IMG/VR virus record: IMGVR_UViG_3300045988_137032
Location: 1 to 64,000 of that record
Reading direction: 5' to 3' (one strand)
DNA length: 64,000 nucleotides
DNA from: a virus
Numbering within the stretch: position 1 is the first letter of the stretch; each line of letters opens with the position of its first letter. Below the pieces are notes generated by a model. It saw nothing but the letters and a program-made list of their open reading frames with translations, ran no database searches and was not told the DNA's origin. The position numbers were made by a program, and so were the translations under genes. Below are positions 48,427-55,147 of the stretch, piece after piece.

Positions 48427-48500
48427 TGGCTGCCCTGTCCTGTTACGATCAGGATTCAGTAGTTTCAAAGACTACTGGCTTACCATTGGCCTACAGGGCA
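48427..48500 (-). tRNA. tRNA-Gln (anticodon UUG), CCA encoded
   Basis: Hand-folded cloverleaf from the reverse complement: TGCCCTG TA GGC CAATGGTAA GCC A GTAGT CTTTGAA ACTAC TGAA TCCTG ATCGTAA CAGGA CAGGGCA G CCA. It has the U1-A72 pair typical of tRNA-Gln. Confidence 0.8.
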
Positions 48501-48513
48501 ATATGTATTTATC

Positions 48514-48568
48514 CAGTATATGATCTGCTATCCAAGGTCAAGCAGGAAGGATAGCAGATCATATACTG
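48514..48568. repeat. perfect 20-bp inverted repeat (hairpin) inside the tRNA cluster
   Basis: CAGTATATGATCTGCTATCC (48514..48533) pairs with GGATAGCAGATCATATACTG (48549..48568). The loop is 15 nt. Confidence 0.85.
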
Positions 48569-48667
48569 ATTCTAGGAGGTTATCTATACGCAGCACAAAT
48601 GGTAAAGACTACACCCATTGCACGTGCGGTAATGTCTTAGAAGAGGATATATTTTGTATACCCTCCA

Positions 48668-48758
48668 TGGCGCCAGCACTCGGGTACGATCCGAGGATAC
48701 GTTGTTAGCGTATGCCGGTTTTCAAGACCGGTGTATTCGACCACTCTACCATACTGGC
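48668..48758 (-). tRNA. tRNA-Ser (anticodon UGA), class II, CCA encoded
   Basis: The acceptor stem is GCCAGTA/TGCTGGC. The anticodon arm is CCGGT CTTGAAA ACCGG. The long variable arm is CATACG-CTAACAA-CGTATC. The T arm is CTCGG ATCGTAC CCGAG. The discriminator is G73. Confidence 0.8.
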
Positions 48759-48765
48759 TTATAAT

Positions 48766-48802
48766 GAATATCCATCCCATATCCTGTATACAATGGATAT
48801 TC
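48766..48802. repeat. 10-bp perfect inverted repeat between tRNA-Ser and tRNA-Thr
   Basis: GAATATCCAT (48766..48775) pairs with ATGGATATTC (48793..48802). Confidence 0.8.
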
Positions 48803-48803
48803 T

Positions 48804-48878
48804 TGGTGCCGGATGTTGGGATTGAGCCAACTTTTGAGAATTACAAATTCCCTGTCTTCACCATTGGACGAATCCGGC
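48804..48878 (-). tRNA. tRNA-Thr (anticodon UGU), CCA encoded
   Basis: The acceptor stem is GCCGGAT/ATCCGGC. The anticodon arm is GGGAA TTTGTAA TTCTC. The T arm is GTTGG CTCAATC CCAAC. Confidence 0.75.
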
Positions 48879-48884
48879 TAGATA

Positions 48885-48963
48885 TGTCAATACTCGGACT
48901 TGAACCGAGACCCTTTCGGACTACCACCTCAAAGTAGCGTGTCTGCCTTTCCACCATATTGAC
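48885..48963 (-). tRNA. tRNA-Leu (anticodon GAG), class II, no encoded CCA
   Basis: The acceptor stem is GTCAATA/TATTGAC. The anticodon arm is CTACT TTGAGGT GGTAG. The variable arm is TCCGAAAGGGT. The T arm is the canonical CTCGG TTCAAGT CCGAG. The discriminator is A73. Confidence 0.75.
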
Positions 48964-49154
48964 ACATATTATTTCTTTTTATTAGAGATAACTATTTGTT
49001 CTTGTGAGTGAATCTTTATATTTATATATTATATACTTGAGTTACAATAAAGGAGGCAATTATTATATGTAGCTTTATAAAAAAGAATCCAGTAGATTAC
49101 AGAATCCTAAACCCTATAAGACTACAGATAACGACAACAAGGAGTGACTAGAAT

Positions 49155-51221
49155 ATGAGTATGACAGTTCCTGCTATTCCGGATACGAAAGAACTCGAAA
49201 AGTATATCAAACCGATTTACTTTATCGAAGATTACATGGTAAGCGAAGAAACCTATAGTGCATTTGAAGATCGAATTTATGATGTGGTGAAAGGGTGTTT
49301 TGAAATTAAAGAATGCAGGGAATACCCTGTGAAGTTTAAGTTCTATAAGGATGACAAAGAGATGCATGAATTGCAGCTCCGTCATTTCTTGATCAATGTA
49401 TTCATGTGGCATCCGTTTGTGAATCTGTATGATACGGATTTTCATATGGATAAAACCTTCATTGTGGATTGCTTTACTGAGATTCCTCATTTGGAGGATT
49501 TCATTAATCCAAAGATCATTGAGGTTCTGAGAGATTACAGTGTACGAAATACTGTGATTAACGAAAGCGTATCCAACGTACTACACAATCTGAGAAGCAT
49601 TTCGATCAATTTCGCATTGATTATGGGATTGACGATCTCTACGAATACCTTCTTGGATTGGTATACGGAAGATAAAGAACTTCATGATATCATGAATACG
49701 ACTTTCCCGCTTGATAAACAGCCTAGTGAAATCGAAGAAGCACTGGCTGATATTCAGGTAAGAGAAATCGAAGAGATCAAAACTCGTAAGGATGATCCGG
49801 TTGGTATTATTCTGAGAGCAGATACCGGCATTAAGCACAAGCAGCTTGTTGAGTTTACTGCTCATATGGGCTTGAAACCCGACCTTGCAGGTGTTACGAT
49901 TCCTCTGCCTATCAACTCTTCTACTTTGATTAGAGGTTTGGATAAACCCAGTTCTCATTACATTGATGCACTGGGCGGCCGTAAGTCTCTGATTATGAAT
50001 AAGAAGGTCATGGGTAGAGCTGGTTATTTCGGCAAGGTTGTGCTGCTTCTGGCACGTACTCTGTCTCTGTCCATGGATGTATCTGATTGTGGTAGTAAGC
50101 ATTATCTAAAGATTATGATTACTTCCAAGAAGATGCTCCAGAAGTACAATAACCGTTACTACCTTGATCATTCCACTGGTGATCTCAAGTGTCTGAATGC
50201 GGAAACCGATACCCATTTGATTGGTACCTACGTAGATTTTCGCAGTCCGATTACTTGTAAGTGTGGTGATAAAGTTTGCCATGTCTGCTTCGGCCGTACT
50301 TCTCTGCTGAACCTTGATATCGCTGATGGCGTTACTGGCTTTGAAGTTGAGGAAGTTACCAAGGTTGTCAACCAGATGATTCTGTCCACGAAGCATCTTT
50401 TGACTACTGTGTCTGAGAAGATCAGCTTCAATGATGACTTCCATCGGTTCTTCCGTCTGTACTGTGGTGAGATTATTCCTCTCACTGCTGAAGAAGCAAT
50501 CCCTGACATTGATGATTGGGCAGTCTGGGTTGATCCCACTACCATTCAGAGATCCGATGATCTGGATGAAGATTCTTCCTTCAACAGCTATGTGCTGGGT
50601 GGATTCTATGTCCAGAATATGAAGACTGGTGAGGTCATCCAGATTAAGACTGACGAAGGCCGTGAGCTTTATCTGACAGATGAACTGATCGATCTCGTTA
50701 AGAAGGGACATGGATATGCAAAGTTCTCTGAGATGACGGAGTTCACTACGCTGTTCAAGATCATTATCATGAACAACGAATTGACGAAGCCTCTGTATTC
50801 TCTGATGAACCTGCTGAATAATTCGAAGTCTACTTCGAATGGTACCATCACCTATCATGAGATGGCTCAGAAGTTTACTGAGCTTCTGCTGGATGCCGGT
50901 ATTAAGGCGACTGCACTGTCTGGCGAGCTTATCATCAACCGTTTGATTCGCAATGATCCCGACGTTGATTATGATCGTCCTGACTTCTCCAAGGAGGATA
51001 TTGGTAAGTATAAGATCGTCAATGTCCTGAACGCTATCGAGTACAACAAGTCTCCTTTGCTTGGTCTGGCCGGTCAGAATCTGAAGCGTCAGCTTCTGTC
51101 GGATGCTCTGGTTACTACGAAGGATTCTCCGTCTTATATTGATGCATACTTCAAGAAGAAGACTTCTACGGAAAACTTTATCCGTAAGCATCACAAACCT
51201 GAAGAATCCTCTGACTGTTAA
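49155..51221 (+). CDS. multisubunit RNA polymerase beta-prime-like subunit, C-terminal fragment (stand-alone gene)
   Basis: ILRADTGIKHKQLVEFTAHMGLKPDLAGVTIPLPINS..RGL..HYIDALGGRKSLIMNKKVMGRAGYFGKVVLLLARTL..DCGSK aligns with the bacterial beta-prime SGARGS..GMRGL..P.G..PI..EGL..YF.S..GARKGL.DTALKTA.SGYLTRRLVDV..DCGT region. FRSPITCKCGDKVCHVCFGRTSL aligns with VRS..C..GVC..CYGRDL. Confidence 0.8.
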   Translation: MSMTVPAIPDTKELEKYIKPIYFIEDYMVSEETYSAFEDRIYDVVKGCFEIKECREYPVKFKFYKDDKEMHELQLRHFLINVFMWHPFVNLYDTDFHMDKTFIVDCFTEIPHLEDFINPKIIEVLRDYSVRNTVINESVSNVLHNLRSISINFALIMGLTISTNTFLDWYTEDKELHDIMNTTFPLDKQPSEIEEALADIQVREIEEIKTRKDDPVGIILRADTGIKHKQLVEFTAHMGLKPDLAGVTIPLPINSSTLIRGLDKPSSHYIDALGGRKSLIMNKKVMGRAGYFGKVVLLLARTLSLSMDVSDCGSKHYLKIMITSKKMLQKYNNRYYLDHSTGDLKCLNAETDTHLIGTYVDFRSPITCKCGDKVCHVCFGRTSLLNLDIADGVTGFEVEEVTKVVNQMILSTKHLLTTVSEKISFNDDFHRFFRLYCGEIIPLTAEEAIPDIDDWAVWVDPTTIQRSDDLDEDSSFNSYVLGGFYVQNMKTGEVIQIKTDEGRELYLTDELIDLVKKGHGYAKFSEMTEFTTLFKIIIMNNELTKPLYSLMNLLNNSKSTSNGTITYHEMAQKFTELLLDAGIKATALSGELIINRLIRNDPDVDYDRPDFSKEDIGKYKIVNVLNAIEYNKSPLLGLAGQNLKRQLLSDALVTTKDSPSYIDAYFKKKTSTENFIRKHHKPEESSDC

Positions 51222-51288: not shown

Positions 51289-52155
51289 ATGGCATCTGAT
51301 GAGTTTTTCAAATTATCTAAGATGGCCCATAATCGTATCAATATCAAGCAGACTCAAAAGGGTGGAAACAATATCATCCAGTGTCAGAATATCCACATCG
51401 ATCAGAATATGAATATTACTGGTGATGGAAACCATGTAACTGGTATTCATATCGGAGTTGATGGAGATGTCATTGACGATTTTAACAATGGGAAGAAATC
51501 TGCTAATGATGTCAGGAATACAGCTCTCTATGGTGGATCTACCAAGAAAGAAAAATATCTGAAGAGAAAAAGGTATCACGGAATTCTCAATAGTGATCCA
51601 GAAGACTATAAAACTGCAGAACCACTTGAGGATTTCCTTCACTTCTACGAAACGAATGCTTATAAGGAAGGATATCTTCTGGAACGAAAAATCAAAGGAG
51701 TTATTCACGATAGTGAGAACTTTAGGATTCTTCCTGCGTTTATGTCGAATAAGTTTAGTAAGCTTTTCTCGACAAGGAATATCTACAGTGAATCTGCTAA
51801 AGATCCGATTCTTGGTATTGAGGTAGATAGGGCATATAATATCTACTATCGAATTACAGATAACGCTGTATTCTATATCATCAGTAAAGATGTGCCTGGA
51901 TTCAAATCGTTTTGTCCTTTTAGTCTTGAAATGTGTCATCTCGTTGAGCTTCGGTATTTCAGGAAAGATAATACTTCGGCTCCCGTTTTCTATGATCCTA
52001 AGAATGATTATCTGTATACAAAAGATGATAATACGATCATTCTTAGTAAGGTTACAGAAACCAGTTTTCAGAAGTTCCTCGATCTCTTATGGGCAATGAA
52101 ATTTGAAATCTTCATTGTAATTCTTATTATTCTCATCTATATCAATTTTCACTAA
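51289..52155 (+). CDS. hypothetical protein with C-terminal membrane anchor
   Basis: 288-aa ORF with a GAAGGAGG RBS. The C-terminus is FEIFIVILIILIYINF. The bidirectional terminator at 52159..52200 follows. Confidence 0.75.
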   Translation: MASDEFFKLSKMAHNRINIKQTQKGGNNIIQCQNIHIDQNMNITGDGNHVTGIHIGVDGDVIDDFNNGKKSANDVRNTALYGGSTKKEKYLKRKRYHGILNSDPEDYKTAEPLEDFLHFYETNAYKEGYLLERKIKGVIHDSENFRILPAFMSNKFSKLFSTRNIYSESAKDPILGIEVDRAYNIYYRITDNAVFYIISKDVPGFKSFCPFSLEMCHLVELRYFRKDNTSAPVFYDPKNDYLYTKDDNTIILSKVTETSFQKFLDLLWAMKFEIFIVILIILIYINFH

Positions 52156-52158
52156 AAG

Positions 52159-52200
52159 AATAACCGCTGTGGAAGATTTATATCAACCACAGCGGTTATT
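52159..52200. terminator. bidirectional terminator between convergent genes
   Basis: 14-bp stem AATAACCGCTGTGG/CCACAGCGGTTATT. Confidence 0.8.
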
Positions 52201-52671
52201 TTATTTTTTCTTCTTATTGAGATAATACTCTTTCATCTCAAACTTATCACATGTCTCAAATCCATGCTTTGCATGATAATTACCTACATGCTTTCTTGGG
52301 AAATCCTTTTCATTCATTCCTCGAATACAACTACCAAGGAATTGTCGATTCTTTCCATTCGTAATGAAATGCTTACACAGATAACAGCATCTACTCCTGT
52401 GATGTGCTCTCACACAGTCATGTTCTTTTTTATAGTAATACTGAAGATAATCCATGTAGTCCATTACAAGATTCTCTTTCGTCCAATCAACTTCTTCTCC
52501 AACGTCTACTTCTTCAAAGAAGTAGGAATATACGTCATCATATCGACTGTCTGTATTTGTTAGAAAGTCTTCCATCCTAGCACCCGGAATTCCCTTGTAG
52601 ACATAAGGATGGTTATTCTCTACCCAGGTATCATCGTGGTGAGGAAAAAAGGAGACACGATACGTGCTCAT
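52201..52671 (-). CDS. Cys/His-rich protein, distant relative of 46912..47755 pair
   Basis: 156-aa ORF with an AGAAAGGA RBS. The Cys/His pattern is HDCVRAHHRSRCCYLCKHF..GSCIRG..HAKHGFETCDKFE. Confidence 0.7.
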   Translation of the reverse strand: MSTYRVSFFPHHDDTWVENNHPYVYKGIPGARMEDFLTNTDSRYDDVYSYFFEEVDVGEEVDWTKENLVMDYMDYLQYYYKKEHDCVRAHHRSRCCYLCKHFITNGKNRQFLGSCIRGMNEKDFPRKHVGNYHAKHGFETCDKFEMKEYYLNKKKK

Positions 52672-52759
52672 ACATAATCAGTCCTTTCTATATATTTTTA
52701 CATACACCATTACACTAACGTAATCTCGAAAGTAGAATGGTAGTCAGTGTTTTTAATAA

Positions 52760-53366
52760 TTACTACCACTACATAGAGATAGCAAGGTTTTAATTCGGTG
52801 TAATCCCGAAGCGATGTCGTGATGACATTCGTAACGCTTAATTCCTTCCATTCATAGTCCAAGCCTGGGCACCGACGCGCCTATTCGTAGCTGGATTAGA
52901 CTACCGTTTTTAGTAGCGGGCTAGGTGATAAATAATAGGGTGTTTGGAAGGACGTGTGGTTTAAACGAATTAAACTGAGTTGCTAGTAATCTCCATACAT
53001 GGAAAACTAGCAGACAGGTAAATGCGGACCTGTCGGAGAGTAGACTTGTATACGCATCCTTGGAGGTGTAGAGGATCGCCGTTGTTTTCGGGATCAGTAA
53101 ACGATATCAGAAACCGCTTGTCAGGATATCCTAGCGCCTAACGGCGTTTTGATTTTCTGGCGAATAACAGCGTGTTATTGGTATTGCAGGTTAACCCTCC
53201 CTCTCTAGCGATTACTGTAAATGATTTCATTTGCAGTTGTTCTATATTTGCTGTTTGAAGACGAAAGTCCCCTTCAGATGGCCATAATGCCTTTCAAAAT
53301 TGATTGATAATCACCACATGTACGGCTTCGTTGTTTCACCGTATATGTGGTGATTATCAATACCCT
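52760..53366 (+). ncRNA. candidate large structured noncoding RNA 1 (or structured 5-prime leader of 53425..54141)
   Basis: The track shows no ORF of 60 aa or more in any frame across 52672..53424. G+C is locally elevated (32/60 in 52861..52920 by my count). There are many hairpins, including GACAGGT/ACCTGTC at 53013..53034 and GCTAGT/ACTAGC at 52982..53011. A long-range 8-bp pairing joins 52803..52810 to 53087..53094. A 22-bp stem at 53304..53360 contains a G-T wobble that is only compatible with the plus strand. Confidence 0.4.
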
Positions 53367-53424
53367 ATACGACATGTAGTTAATTTTACCCACGGAAATA
53401 AATAACGGAAAGGGTGTTTTAACT

Positions 53425-54141
53425 ATGCCGAAATATAAACTTCTTCCTGTGCAAGGAAAAACTACAGTAAATGCTCCTCCTCTTTATATTGTGGTTGCAC
53501 AGGAAGATTTCATTGCTATGGATGGAACTTTTATTCCCTGTGGCACTGAAGGAGGATTTGTAGAAAGCGAAGCTTGCATGCCAAATACATCCAAAGATAA
53601 AAGCTGGATTTATGCTACCAATGGTTATGTAGTTGACAATGCAAAAATTACGAATAGCGTTATCAAGAATGGGTACATATCCGGAAATGCTACCATTGAG
53701 AATTCTATCATCGATAAGAAATGCAATATCATGGAGAATGCAGTTGTAGTTGATTCTACAGTGGATAGTAGTGTGATTGGTGTATGCTCAAGAATCGTTC
53801 GTTGTAAATTGATTGGTGATAATTGCATCAATCTTTATGAGAATACTCATATCTTAGATTCTACGATTGAGGATTCTTCTATTTCTGGAAATATTCTTAT
53901 CTGGAATTCTAATATCGCAAATTGTGCTATTCATAACACTGAATCGAAATGTAGGTCTTATGAATCCACTCATTTATCCGATAAGACGGAATTGGATTCT
54001 CTCAATTACAATTATCGTGATAAGCATGGTACTGGTGAGTTTGCTAAACGTAATAGACAACTCATGAAAGAATTGGAGCGTGCTTTTGCATCAGGAGAAC
54101 TCCGTGCTGGCTACGATATCCATCAGAAATCTGATAAGTAA
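53425..54141 (+). CDS. beta-helix (hexapeptide-like repeat) protein of unknown function
   Basis: 238-aa ORF with a GGAAAGGGTG RBS. It has about 15 short repeats of the type x-I-x-N/D-S-x-[IV], for example NSVIKNGYISGNATIENSIIDKKCNIMENAVVVDSTVDSSVIG. Confidence 0.75.
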   Translation: MPKYKLLPVQGKTTVNAPPLYIVVAQEDFIAMDGTFIPCGTEGGFVESEACMPNTSKDKSWIYATNGYVVDNAKITNSVIKNGYISGNATIENSIIDKKCNIMENAVVVDSTVDSSVIGVCSRIVRCKLIGDNCINLYENTHILDSTIEDSSISGNILIWNSNIANCAIHNTESKCRSYESTHLSDKTELDSLNYNYRDKHGTGEFAKRNRQLMKELERAFASGELRAGYDIHQKSDK

Positions 54142-54999
54142 ATTAATATTTTAATATCTTCTAAACTATATGGTATGAGAACATGATTAAGAAGATCTTC
54201 TTCTCATGCAATTTGCTTAACGATTGGTGCCATTTGTTAAGCAAGACAGTTTAGAATTATTACCTTTTCCTCTCACGAATTTCTCATCGTAATAATTCTA
54301 AATTTAGGGTTGAGAGCCCGAAGTTCAAAGCCGTACAACTCCCATTCCTACGGCCGGTCCAGTAAGATTCTGGAGATCAAGAACGAAAGTAACTTTAGCA
54401 TGATTTATGGATAGACAGAAGTTACCAATTGCGATATCAGCCGATATCTGCTTGTCATTTGAATGTTACTGCATCATATGGTAATTGGTAGCTCTCCACA
54501 TCTGTCTTACATTCATATGCACATGCTCCACTCTTTTGTAACGTACTTTGCTAGTATTGATCAACGTTCACAGCTCTCACAATAAATCGCGTACGGTTTG
54601 ACGTTGGCCAGTCTCTCCTAAGTCGTGTAAGAGATGCTGTATGCAATTGCATTATAAGGAGTTCGATGATATTGAATCTGTAGCGATTCTATCTAGTCAG
54701 GTAAAATTCCTGTGCTTCAAGCTGTTAAGAAGTTTACCATCCTTTTGGTGATACGCTGAACCACTGTCGCGTATACGCCCCAATAAGTTTATATATAGAG
54801 TATAGGATTATGAACTTTGGGTATACTCAGTCCAGAGTGGGTCATTACCGCTGGTTCCTAGATATACTCGATAGACATACCCCGTCGACTATTCTATGTA
54901 TAACAATAAGAGTGATGAAAACGACACCTTGAAGTAACTCCATTTTAGACTATTCAAATACACAGTAGATGTGAGATAAAACATCTACTGTGTATTTTT
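54142..54999 (+). ncRNA. candidate large structured noncoding RNA 2
   Basis: There is no ORF of 60 aa or more across 54142..54984. Perfect hairpins occur at 54213..54244 (9 bp) and 54252..54300 (12 bp). A nested long-range helix pairs 54413..54430 with 54483..54507; it includes a T-G wobble that favours the plus strand. An internal GATATC/GATATC hairpin lies at 54433..54448. The region ends in the terminator at 54956..54999. Confidence 0.45.
54956..54999 (+). terminator. intrinsic terminator closing the second noncoding block
   Basis: 16-bp stem AAATACACAGTAGATG/CATCTACTGTGTATTT followed by TTT. Confidence 0.75.
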
Positions 55000-55053: not shown

Positions 55054-55147
55054 CCTCCTGTAGTGTAATGGTAACACGCCGGATTTATGACCCGGATAAG
55101 TTCTAGATTGGAGCAAGATGGGGGTTGGAGTCCCTCCAGGAGGACCA
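55054..55147 (+). tRNA. aberrant tRNA-like gene (94 nt); nominal anticodon UAU, 24-nt extra region, CCA encoded
   Basis: Hand fold: CCTCCTG TA GTGT AATGGTA ACAC G CCGGA TTTATGA CCCGG [24 nt ATAAGTTCTAGATTGGAGCAAGAT] GGGGG TTGGAGT CCCTC CAGGAGG A CCA. The acceptor stem is a perfect 7 bp. There is an A31-C39 mismatch and a G at T-loop position 56. Confidence 0.5.

Follow-up and report, generated by a model that had tools for sequence, protein, structure and literature searches.

What is encoded in a noncoding stretch of 753 bp that lies between two divergent genes and is dense with potential hairpins? The question is raised by positions 1 to 64,000 of the IMG/VR virus record IMGVR_UViG_3300045988_137032 (64 kb in all, hereafter the window, to which all coordinates refer), where the spacer 52672–53424 separates a leftward gene for a protein of 156 amino acids (aa) from a rightward gene for a 238-aa beta-helix protein. 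A sequence-only reading of this spacer had proposed a structured RNA transcribed from the plus strand, either an independent noncoding RNA (ncRNA) of about 390 nt or a very long regulatory leader of the downstream gene. The comparison of related loci given below makes it very probable that the spacer contains a conserved, structured plus-strand RNA of about 0.6 kb that lies outside every described family.

Conservation and Covariation of the Spacer

A distant blastn search with the region gave no match among GenBank phages. The same locus was recovered from IMG/VR, ENA, JGI, and Logan assemblies by searches with the neighboring proteins and by DNA-motif scans. After deduplication, 22 distinct spacer sequences were obtained, and four added later (L097–L099 and L101) brought the set to 26; they form five lineages, W, A, B, C, and E, with a spacer identity between lineages of 54–76%. 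Many of these relatives are found on jumbo-phage contigs of 250–264 kb, and several come from human-gut samples.

Within this divergent sequence, a series of blocks is invariant or nearly so in all lineages: TTACACTAACGTAATCTC; AGCAAGGTT..TTCGGTG.AATCCCGAAGC; TGTCGTGAYGA; GTAACGCT; GAGTTG; GTAAATGCGGAC; TCGGRGAG; ATACGCATCCTT; AGGTTAAC; CCTCTCT; and GTGATTATC. No open reading frame (ORF) is kept in one frame across the lineages, and the coding of a small protein in the spacer was rejected on this ground.

Seven helices, named P3a, P3b, inner P4a, P4b, P4c, P6, and P7, stay in register in a plain, unfitted MAFFT alignment (A3). Their 40 pairs, with 841 cells, are paired in 96.2% of cells, as compared with 29.8–43.8% when the partners are slid by 1–3 columns and 84.9% after column shuffles. 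Seventeen pairs changed on both sides, versus 2–4 in the slid controls; the covariation score of 0.308 was reached by none of 500 shuffles, and the slid controls gave at most 0.057. In P4, outer P4a, and P5, the registers differ between lineages by 1-nt insertions or deletions, and these helices were anchored by hand on their invariant neighbors. The resulting set of nine helices contains 59 pairs, of which 28 covary on both sides, with 96.5% of cells paired; it is fitted by hand and thus carries less weight than A3. It should be noted that RNAalifold, applied to the full MAFFT alignment of the spacer, was unreliable in the variable parts due to register shifts.

All of the pairings listed in the sequence-only reading are present where it placed them, and comparison with the 21 other distinct copies shows that helices are conserved in the homologs. 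Compensatory changes support GCTAG/CTAGC (52982–52986/53007–53011) and GACAGGT/ACCTGTC (53013–53019/53028–53034), and the proposal of a structured plus-strand RNA in place of mere spacer is itself strongly supported by covariation.

The strand had been assigned from a single G·T pair. The direction proposed holds, and its actual support comes from the core: across the nine helices, G·U and U·G account for 18 pair-type events (108 cells) versus 3 (6 cells) for A·C and C·A. Folding against dinucleotide-shuffled sequences gives, for the whole spacer, z = −6.98 (plus) and −4.76 (minus), and the excess of folding energy is therefore real with respect to this control. For the second domain (53066–53300), the values are −4.94 (plus) and −1.30 (minus), and for the core (52781–53065), −2.29 and −3.69. 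Thermodynamics alone thus demonstrates excess structure and leaves the strand of the core unsettled; it is the G·U excess over A·C, together with the plus-biased folding of the second domain, that identifies the plus strand as the RNA.

Architecture of the RNA

The RNA consists of a conserved core (Domain I), a variable second part (Domain II), and a terminal hairpin. The elements of Domain I, all on the plus strand, are as follows.

52781–53063: Domain I, multi-junction core from AGCAAGG to ATCCTTGG in alignment A3
52794–52810: P3a, TTCGG/CCGAA, stem of 5 bp and G-C-closed loop of 7 nt (UGNAAUC)
52811–52832: P3b, GCG/CGT and ATGTC/GACAT with the loop GTGAY
52843–52952: P4–P4a arm, which leads to a three-way junction formed with P4b and P4c
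52843–52850/52945–52952: P4, TCCTTCCA/TGGAAGGA, hand-registered, 5 of 8 pairs covary
52870–52873/52924–52927 and 52877–52878/52920–52921: P4a, CACC/GGTG and GC/GC, hand-registered, 5 of 8 pairs covary
52879–52901: P4b hairpin, loop GTAGCTG (52887–52893) containing UAGCUG, 5 of 8 stem pairs covary
52904–52919: P4c hairpin, CCGTT/AGCGG in the window and CCG-GAAA-CGG in lineage C
52958–52976: P5 hairpin, GGTTTAA/TTAAACT, 3 of 5 pairs covary after register correction
52982–53011: P6, GCTAG/CTAGC around conserved internal-loop bases (CTC, AAAAC) and a length-variable inner hairpin
53013–53034: P7, GACAGGT/ACCTGTC with the invariant loop AAATGCGG (AAAUGCGG as RNA)
53035–53061: near-invariant single-stranded or tertiary segment with GGAGAG (53035–53040) and ATACGCATCCTT (53050–53061)

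In Domain I, the stems covary, and the loops and junctions are invariant. P3a is identical in 22 of 22 sequences except for loop position 3, and its sequence resembles a tRNA T-arm or T-loop. P3b is paired in 100% of cells and has two covarying pairs (G-C to A-U, and A-U to C-G to U-A). This hairpin had been read as a compound AAGCG-ATGTC stem: the inner ATGTC/GACAT helix (52814–52818/52824–52828) is supported by compensatory changes, and the outer AAGCG/CGCTT helix is not, as position 52813 covaries with 52830 within GCG/CGT and its formerly proposed partner is invariant.

The two inner pairs of P4a covary on the unfitted alignment as well. In P4c, the changes U-A to C-G and U·G to C-G occur inside the window's own lineage. 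Four of the five P6 pairs covary (GCUAG to GCCAG to GGCUG), and the inner hairpin has 4–8 bp of lineage-specific sequence; three of the seven P7 pairs covary, with numerous G·U intermediates.

Several further contacts are candidates. The pair CAAGG (52783–52787)/CCTTG (53058–53062) appears in most single-sequence minimum-energy folds and may close Domain I, both of its strands being invariant, so that covariation is not possible. The P7 loop ATGCG can pair with CGCAT (53053–53057), 20 nt downstream, in a candidate pseudoknot in which both sides are invariant. ATACGCATCCTT is the same in every sequence that covers it, and GGAGAG is replaced by GGGGAG in three lineage-A copies (L037, L038, and L046); GGAGAG could pair with CTCTCT (53201–53206), the A-to-G change in lineage A giving a G·U pair.

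The elements of Domain II and the terminal hairpin, also on the plus strand, are as follows.

53064–53300: Domain II
53074–53095: local hairpin
53102–53186: long arm, with its tip at 53133–53148
53186–53206: motif GCAGGTTAAC...CCCTCTCT
53214–53237 and about 53250–53282: two further hairpins
53303–53325/53339–53361: terminal hairpin, 23-nt arms that are 96% complementary, 13-nt loop

The sequence of Domain II is much less conserved, and the order of its elements is the same in lineages W, A, B, C, and E, with differing sequences: a local hairpin, a long arm of about 15–25 bp, the conserved segment AGGUUAAC...CCUCUCU in RNA letters, and two further hairpins. Of the latter, the TGAAG/CTTCA hairpin keeps its position, as had been proposed, while its sequence differs between lineages. 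The long-range 8-bp pairing of the earlier proposal, between ATCCCGAA and TTCGGGAT, is not confirmed. It occurs only in the window's own lineage, about 2–3 such 8-mers are expected by chance per 600 nt, and each strand has a conserved local partner instead, in P3a and in hairpin 53074–53095, respectively.

The proposed internal terminator AGCGCC/GGCGTT (53133–53148) exists as a hairpin and is better read otherwise than as a terminator: it forms the tip of the long arm, into which the U-run pairs back, and the U-run is missing in lineages C and E. An ncRNA of about 390 nt ending near 53150 is consequently not supported; the hairpin caps the long arm, and the invariant AGGTTAAC and CCTCTCT and the position-conserved hairpins go on to 53361.

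A GAAA tetraloop on P4c with an 11-nt receptor was also considered in lineage C (L002 and L007, at the equivalent of about 53160–53240), where the strings UAUGG and CCUAAG (CAUAUGGG, CCCUAAGUG) are present. This is probably a coincidence because CCUAAG lies inside a hairpin and is lacking in the lineage-E homolog.

The Terminal Hairpin

The 22-bp stem of the sequence-only reading is borne out: a terminal hairpin of 19–23 bp, with energies of −29 to −35 kcal/mol, is found in all lineages, and 8 of 19 counted stem positions covary. The upper stem is fully compensated. The lower stem is conserved, and its 3′ arm, GTGATTATC (GUGAUUAUC as RNA), is invariant even where the 5′ arm changes. The single G·U pair of the window is an intermediate between A-U (L097) and G-C (L056 and L098).

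The stem is not followed by a U-run, since AATACCCTATACG comes next, and it is absent from the terminator scan; the same phage has a canonical hairpin with a U-run elsewhere, at 54956–54997. The near-continuous duplex has the length of an RNase III substrate (about 20 bp or more). From these features, the hairpin may be a protector of the 3′ end or a site at which RNase III would part the RNA from the beta-helix messenger RNA (mRNA). RNase III hairpins are known in phage early transcripts, in T7 and in SP82 of Bacillus, as duplexes of about two turns between functional units with conserved sequence in one arm. The present hairpin is like these sites in its length, its place, and the conserved sequence of one arm. 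Unlike the T7 sites, which have internal loops, it has a nearly perfect stem; its cleavage is a prediction.

The P4b Loop

Four lineages have an invariant P4b loop, UAGCUG, which is self-complementary (U·G, A-U, G-C, C-G, U-A, G·U). In lineage E, the most distant one, the loop is AUUGCAAG, which contains the perfect palindrome UUGCAA. UUGCAA differs from UAGCUG by an exchange of positions 2 and 5 and by a change at position 6 that restores pairing. Since adjacent loop bases are unable to pair within one chain, such a switch between palindromes is a signature of symmetric intermolecular kissing, and palindrome covariation in a loop is the evidence that was used for intermolecular kissing loops in OLE and GOLLD (PMC12286853). 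The loop sequence thus suggests dimer or multimer formation via P4b, which we treat as a lead only.

Putative Promoter and Ends of the RNA

Three elements upstream and downstream of the folded region bear on its transcription.

52710–52727, plus strand: near-invariant block TTACACTAACGTAATCTC with the dyad ATTAC-N6-GTAAT, unique in the window
52709–52738, plus strand: sigma-70-like promoter match ATTACA-18 nt-TAGAAT, 9 of 12 positions, start at about 52745
53362–53424, plus strand: spacer before the beta-helix gene, with the conserved TGTAGTTAATT (53375–53385) and the Shine–Dalgarno sequence GGAAAGGG (53407–53414)

The TTACACTAACGTAATCTC block is nearly invariant in all five lineages, with three differences in lineage E (L034) and one in L049. 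The block may serve the divergent units as a promoter/operator, or it may form a 5′ hairpin of the RNA; part of it reads ATCTC...GAGAT and, in lineage E, ATCCGG...TCGGAT, which would form this alternative 5′ hairpin. The promoter-like match is the sole one on the plus strand of the spacer, and four lineages conserve it. The sequence TAGAATGG (52733–52740), conserved in four lineages and present in lineage C as a tandem duplicate about 50 nt apart, is either the −10 element of the RNA promoter or a recognition motif.

None of the sequences TAACGTAAT, TAGAATGG, TGTAGTTAATT, and GTGGTGATTATC is enriched in the window as a repeated phage promoter or terminator motif, and the promoter consensus sequences of phage AR9 (PMC5312081) are not recognizable in the region; the phage's own RNA polymerases may use other promoters. 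Rightward transcription from the plus-strand operon upstream, which ends at the convergent 156-aa gene, meets this gene, and the RNA therefore needs its own promoter in 52672–52780. On the basis of these motifs, the 5′ end is placed tentatively near 52745 and the 3′ end at or after 53361. As there is no terminator at 53361, transcription probably continues into the beta-helix gene, except if the terminal hairpin serves as a processing site.

The hairpin ends 45 nt before the Shine–Dalgarno sequence, which is of the phage's ordinary GAAAGG type and lies outside every conserved helix. A pairing of GGAAAGGG with the CU-rich motif, seen in a first alifold run, was dropped because GGAAAGGG is the standard Shine–Dalgarno sequence of the phage.

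Phage Context, Neighboring Genes, and a Second Structured Region

The source is a jumbo phage from the human gut. Its window encodes a split beta′ subunit of a multisubunit RNA polymerase (49155–51221, PHROG 3015), about 27% identical to those of the Bacillus phages AR9 and PBS1, together with a 3888-aa protein and five transfer RNAs (tRNAs). The features surrounding the RNA are the following.

52201–52671, minus strand: 156-aa gene, divergent to the RNA and adjoining it in every lineage; orphan Cys/His-rich protein
53425–54141, plus strand: 238-aa gene, adjoining the RNA in every lineage; left-handed beta-helix (hexapeptide-like) protein
54142–54955, plus strand: second structured region, 814 nt, ORF-free, followed by the terminator 54956–54997 and then a tRNA gene
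48427–48964: four tRNA genes (ARAGORN), about 3.7 kb upstream of the RNA
55054–55147: tRNA-Ile gene (ARAGORN), 1.7 kb downstream of the RNA

The 156-aa protein has the invariant Cys/His motifs PHHDD, EHDC, CC (residues 95–96), GSC, NYHAKH, and ETC, which suggest metal binding. A search of 1.84 billion representative proteins revealed no relative beyond the phage clade, and no match was found in PDB, Pfam, PHROG, NCBIfam, or PADLOC. The beta-helix protein gave only weak hexapeptide/YdcK matches. Structure predictions of the two proteins were too poor for fold searches, with predicted local distance difference test (pLDDT) values of 39 and 55; the former is that of the AlphaFold model of the 156-aa protein, which was unusable. 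The flanking genes thus reveal no function, and together with the RNA they constitute a clade-specific module.

The distribution agrees with this. Among 45 IMG/VR loci with a related beta′ subunit, all three components occur together in five, whose beta′ is at least 72% identical to that of the window, and all three are absent within 6 kb in the remaining 40, whose beta′ is 25–61% identical. Looser motif scans of IMG/VR returned the same family and chance matches and nothing else. When 185,579 bacterial and archaeal genomes were scanned with the 18 most invariant specified bases, 38 matches resulted, all of them due to chance, as their similarity by nhmmer is confined to the pattern itself.

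In farther jumbo-phage relatives that lack the RNA (beta′ 42–46% identical), ORF-free stretches of 1.3–2 kb lie a few kilobases downstream of beta′, which may represent tRNA islands or different large RNAs.

L127, 11116–13092: ORF-free stretch
L130, 11596–13519: ORF-free stretch
L131, 7791–10673: ORF-free stretch
L133, 10775–12148: ORF-free stretch

Two other observations concern the surroundings. The gap 52153–52200, between the convergent 288-aa and 156-aa genes, matches relatives in both orientations with 86–90% identity; it is therefore palindromic and is probably a bidirectional terminator. The plus-strand tRNA-Ile(UAU) at 55054–55147 is 94 nt long and, according to the Rfam alignment and ARAGORN, has about 21 nt inserted between its anticodon and T arms; such a long variable region is unusual in Ile tRNAs.

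For region 54142–54955, the folding z-scores are −6.63 (plus) and −1.71 (minus). Lineages W, A, and B all conserve it, and long blocks within it, GGUCCAGUAAGAUUCUGGAGAUCAAGAACGAAAGUAAC among them, are invariant; of the 232 predicted consensus pairs, 63 changed on both sides, versus 11–14 in slid controls. It has no Rfam match and is probably another novel large RNA. The beta-helix gene, therefore, lies between two large structured RNAs.

Identity of the RNA and Alternative Explanations

Covariance-model searches of the window and six relatives, representing all five lineages, against Rfam 15 (including ROOL, GOLLD, OLE, HEARO, introns, RNase P, transfer-messenger RNA (tmRNA), 6S, riboswitches, and T-box) gave no match at E ≤ 10. 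The long hairpin gave spurious matches of the microRNA-precursor type, all far below the gathering scores. No known family therefore accounts for the helices that the alignment of homologous loci supports.

We lean toward a stand-alone, stable ncRNA of about 580–650 nt of the kind described as large ornate phage RNAs: it exceeds 500 nt, has several domains and covarying helices, and is phage-encoded near tRNA genes. Such an RNA would be transcribed from its own promoter in the conserved block 52709–52745 and would act through its three-dimensional fold rather than as a message or a simple regulator; the near-perfect terminal hairpin (53303–53361) would end the unit, protecting the 3′ end or marking a processing site. 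Two copies might pair symmetrically by their P4b loops, as in OLE, ROOL, and GOLLD, and the RNA might work together with the divergently encoded 156-aa protein. A less likely, extended proposal is that ornate phage RNAs that self-assemble, so far represented by ROOL and GOLLD, have here a third class unrelated to either. It would be specific to human-gut jumbo phages with their own multisubunit RNA polymerases, would dimerize or multimerize by the P4b loop, possibly forming a ribonucleoprotein (RNP) with the 156-aa protein, and would be paired with the second, equally novel RNA of about 800 nt.

Several observations weigh against these interpretations. The core folds only modestly better than its shuffles, and better on the minus strand; three of the nine helices required manual correction of their register; and the covariation stems from few independent events because there are only five lineages with many near-identical copies. 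A candidate closing helix for Domain II is not significant, the duplex energies being no better than those of shuffled sequences (p = 0.03–0.46). The promoter match is weak, and in lineage E its two hexamers lie 3 nt closer together. Both ends of the RNA were deduced from the sequence, and the beta-helix gene follows the RNA without an intervening canonical terminator, so that the RNA could be the 5′ untranslated region of this gene. The palindrome switch comes from a single lineage-E sequence and was noticed post hoc, and the link with the 156-aa protein is one of adjacency only.

The most substantial alternative follows from the position of the RNA, which is co-oriented with the beta-helix gene and directly upstream of it in every lineage: it could be a giant structured 5′ leader controlling this gene in cis through a ligand, a protein, temperature, or mRNA stability, with the terminal or an internal hairpin as attenuator. 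No hairpin with a U-run intervenes, the next canonical terminator on the strand being that at 54956–54997, and the internal terminator-like hairpin has its U-run (53133–53150) in lineages W and A. However, a structure of about 600 nt with two domains is far above the size of known riboswitches, T-boxes, and protein-binding leaders, and no Rfam cis-regulatory family, aptamer, or T-box is matched. Of the two hairpins, the internal one has a U-run that folds back into the long arm and is missing from lineages C and E; the terminal one has none and stops 45 nt short of the Shine–Dalgarno sequence, which takes part in no conserved pairing. The second large structured RNA past the gene also suggests an RNA-rich locus rather than a gene-specific switch. 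We consider a leader the less likely reading, and the riboswitch or attenuator of the sequence-only reading finds no support in these data.

An element acting at the DNA level, such as a replication origin, a packaging site, or a protein-binding array in a divergent promoter, with cruciforms or single-stranded DNA hairpins, would fit the location of the spacer, which divergent genes flank, as well as the dyad ATTAC-N6-GTAAT in the 5′ block, the invariant outer half GTGATTATC of the terminal inverted repeat, and the fact that the minus strand, too, folds better than shuffles. It is nevertheless improbable to a high degree: the 18-to-3 preference for G·U over A·C is relevant only to a transcribed plus strand, the arrangement of nine nested helices, with its multi-way junctions and invariant loops, is of the RNA type, and the region lacks iterons, direct repeats, and an AT-rich unwinding block and coincides with no turn in cumulative GC skew. 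A known class in a highly diverged form (group I or II intron, RNase P RNA, tmRNA, ROOL, GOLLD, OLE, or HEARO) could have the observed size and complexity and the T-arm-like hairpin, and the window copy has GACGAAAGTCC, reminiscent of P4 of RNase P. This string, however, is not conserved even in the window's own lineage; ARAGORN finds no tmRNA in the region, seven sequences from five lineages match no covariance model, and the flanks are two complete divergent genes rather than an interrupted one, which speaks against an inserted self-splicing intron. We therefore assign very little probability to this explanation. Finally, single complementarities of 5–8 bp are expected by chance in any spacer, and the 8-bp long-range pairing is of that kind, but the invariant blocks amid 54–76% identity, the covariation, and the slid-partner controls contradict nonfunctional DNA with chance hairpins or leftover terminators, which has virtually no probability.

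Comparison with Known Large RNAs

Like ROOL and GOLLD, the present RNA exceeds 500 nt, has several domains with covarying stems and invariant loops and junctions, is phage-encoded near tRNA genes, has loops capable of symmetric kissing, and has no associated function. GOLLD consists of one well-conserved and one variable half (PMC12286853), and this layout is similar to that of Domains I and II. The present RNA differs from both in having no sequence or covariance-model similarity to them, in its restriction to one clade of gut jumbo phages, and in the same two flanking protein genes at every locus; its oligomerization, as opposed to theirs, is a candidate property from the loop sequence.

OLE works with dedicated partner proteins encoded nearby. 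It differs from the present RNA in being cellular, in anaerobic extremophilic Firmicutes, in giving no model match here, and in having unrelated partner proteins. It is likewise a large ornate RNA that dimerizes partly by a palindromic kissing loop, for which covariation between palindromes in the loop was taken as evidence (PMC12286853). The present RNA has no Rfam match to the prohead RNA of phage phi29, which differs further in its length of about 120–174 nt, its heterotypic loop pairing, and its unrelated host phages. The phi29 RNA is phage-encoded, multimerizes by loop–loop pairing, and is part of a phage machine.

Riboswitch and T-box leaders share with the present RNA the upstream, co-oriented position and a structured, conserved, aptamer-like core. 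The present RNA is three to six times larger, matches no known aptamer, and has no terminator/antiterminator or platform that sequesters the Shine–Dalgarno sequence; the beta-helix gene, unlike the targets of riboswitches, is not a recognizable metabolic or transport gene.

Significance

Few classes of bacterial and phage ncRNAs exceed 500 nt, and each of those found proved to be unusual, as ribozymes, RNA cages, or membrane-associated RNPs. The RNA described here is a new candidate for the very short list of large ornate ncRNAs carried by phages, and through it the function of large phage RNAs becomes testable in an independent system. It is short enough for in vitro transcription, chemical probing, and cryo-electron microscopy, and it offers covariation, invariant loops that imply tertiary or quaternary contacts, defined protein neighbors, and a second structured RNA nearby. 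Taken together, our results indicate that gut jumbo phages carry RNA genes that have been overlooked by protein-centered annotation.

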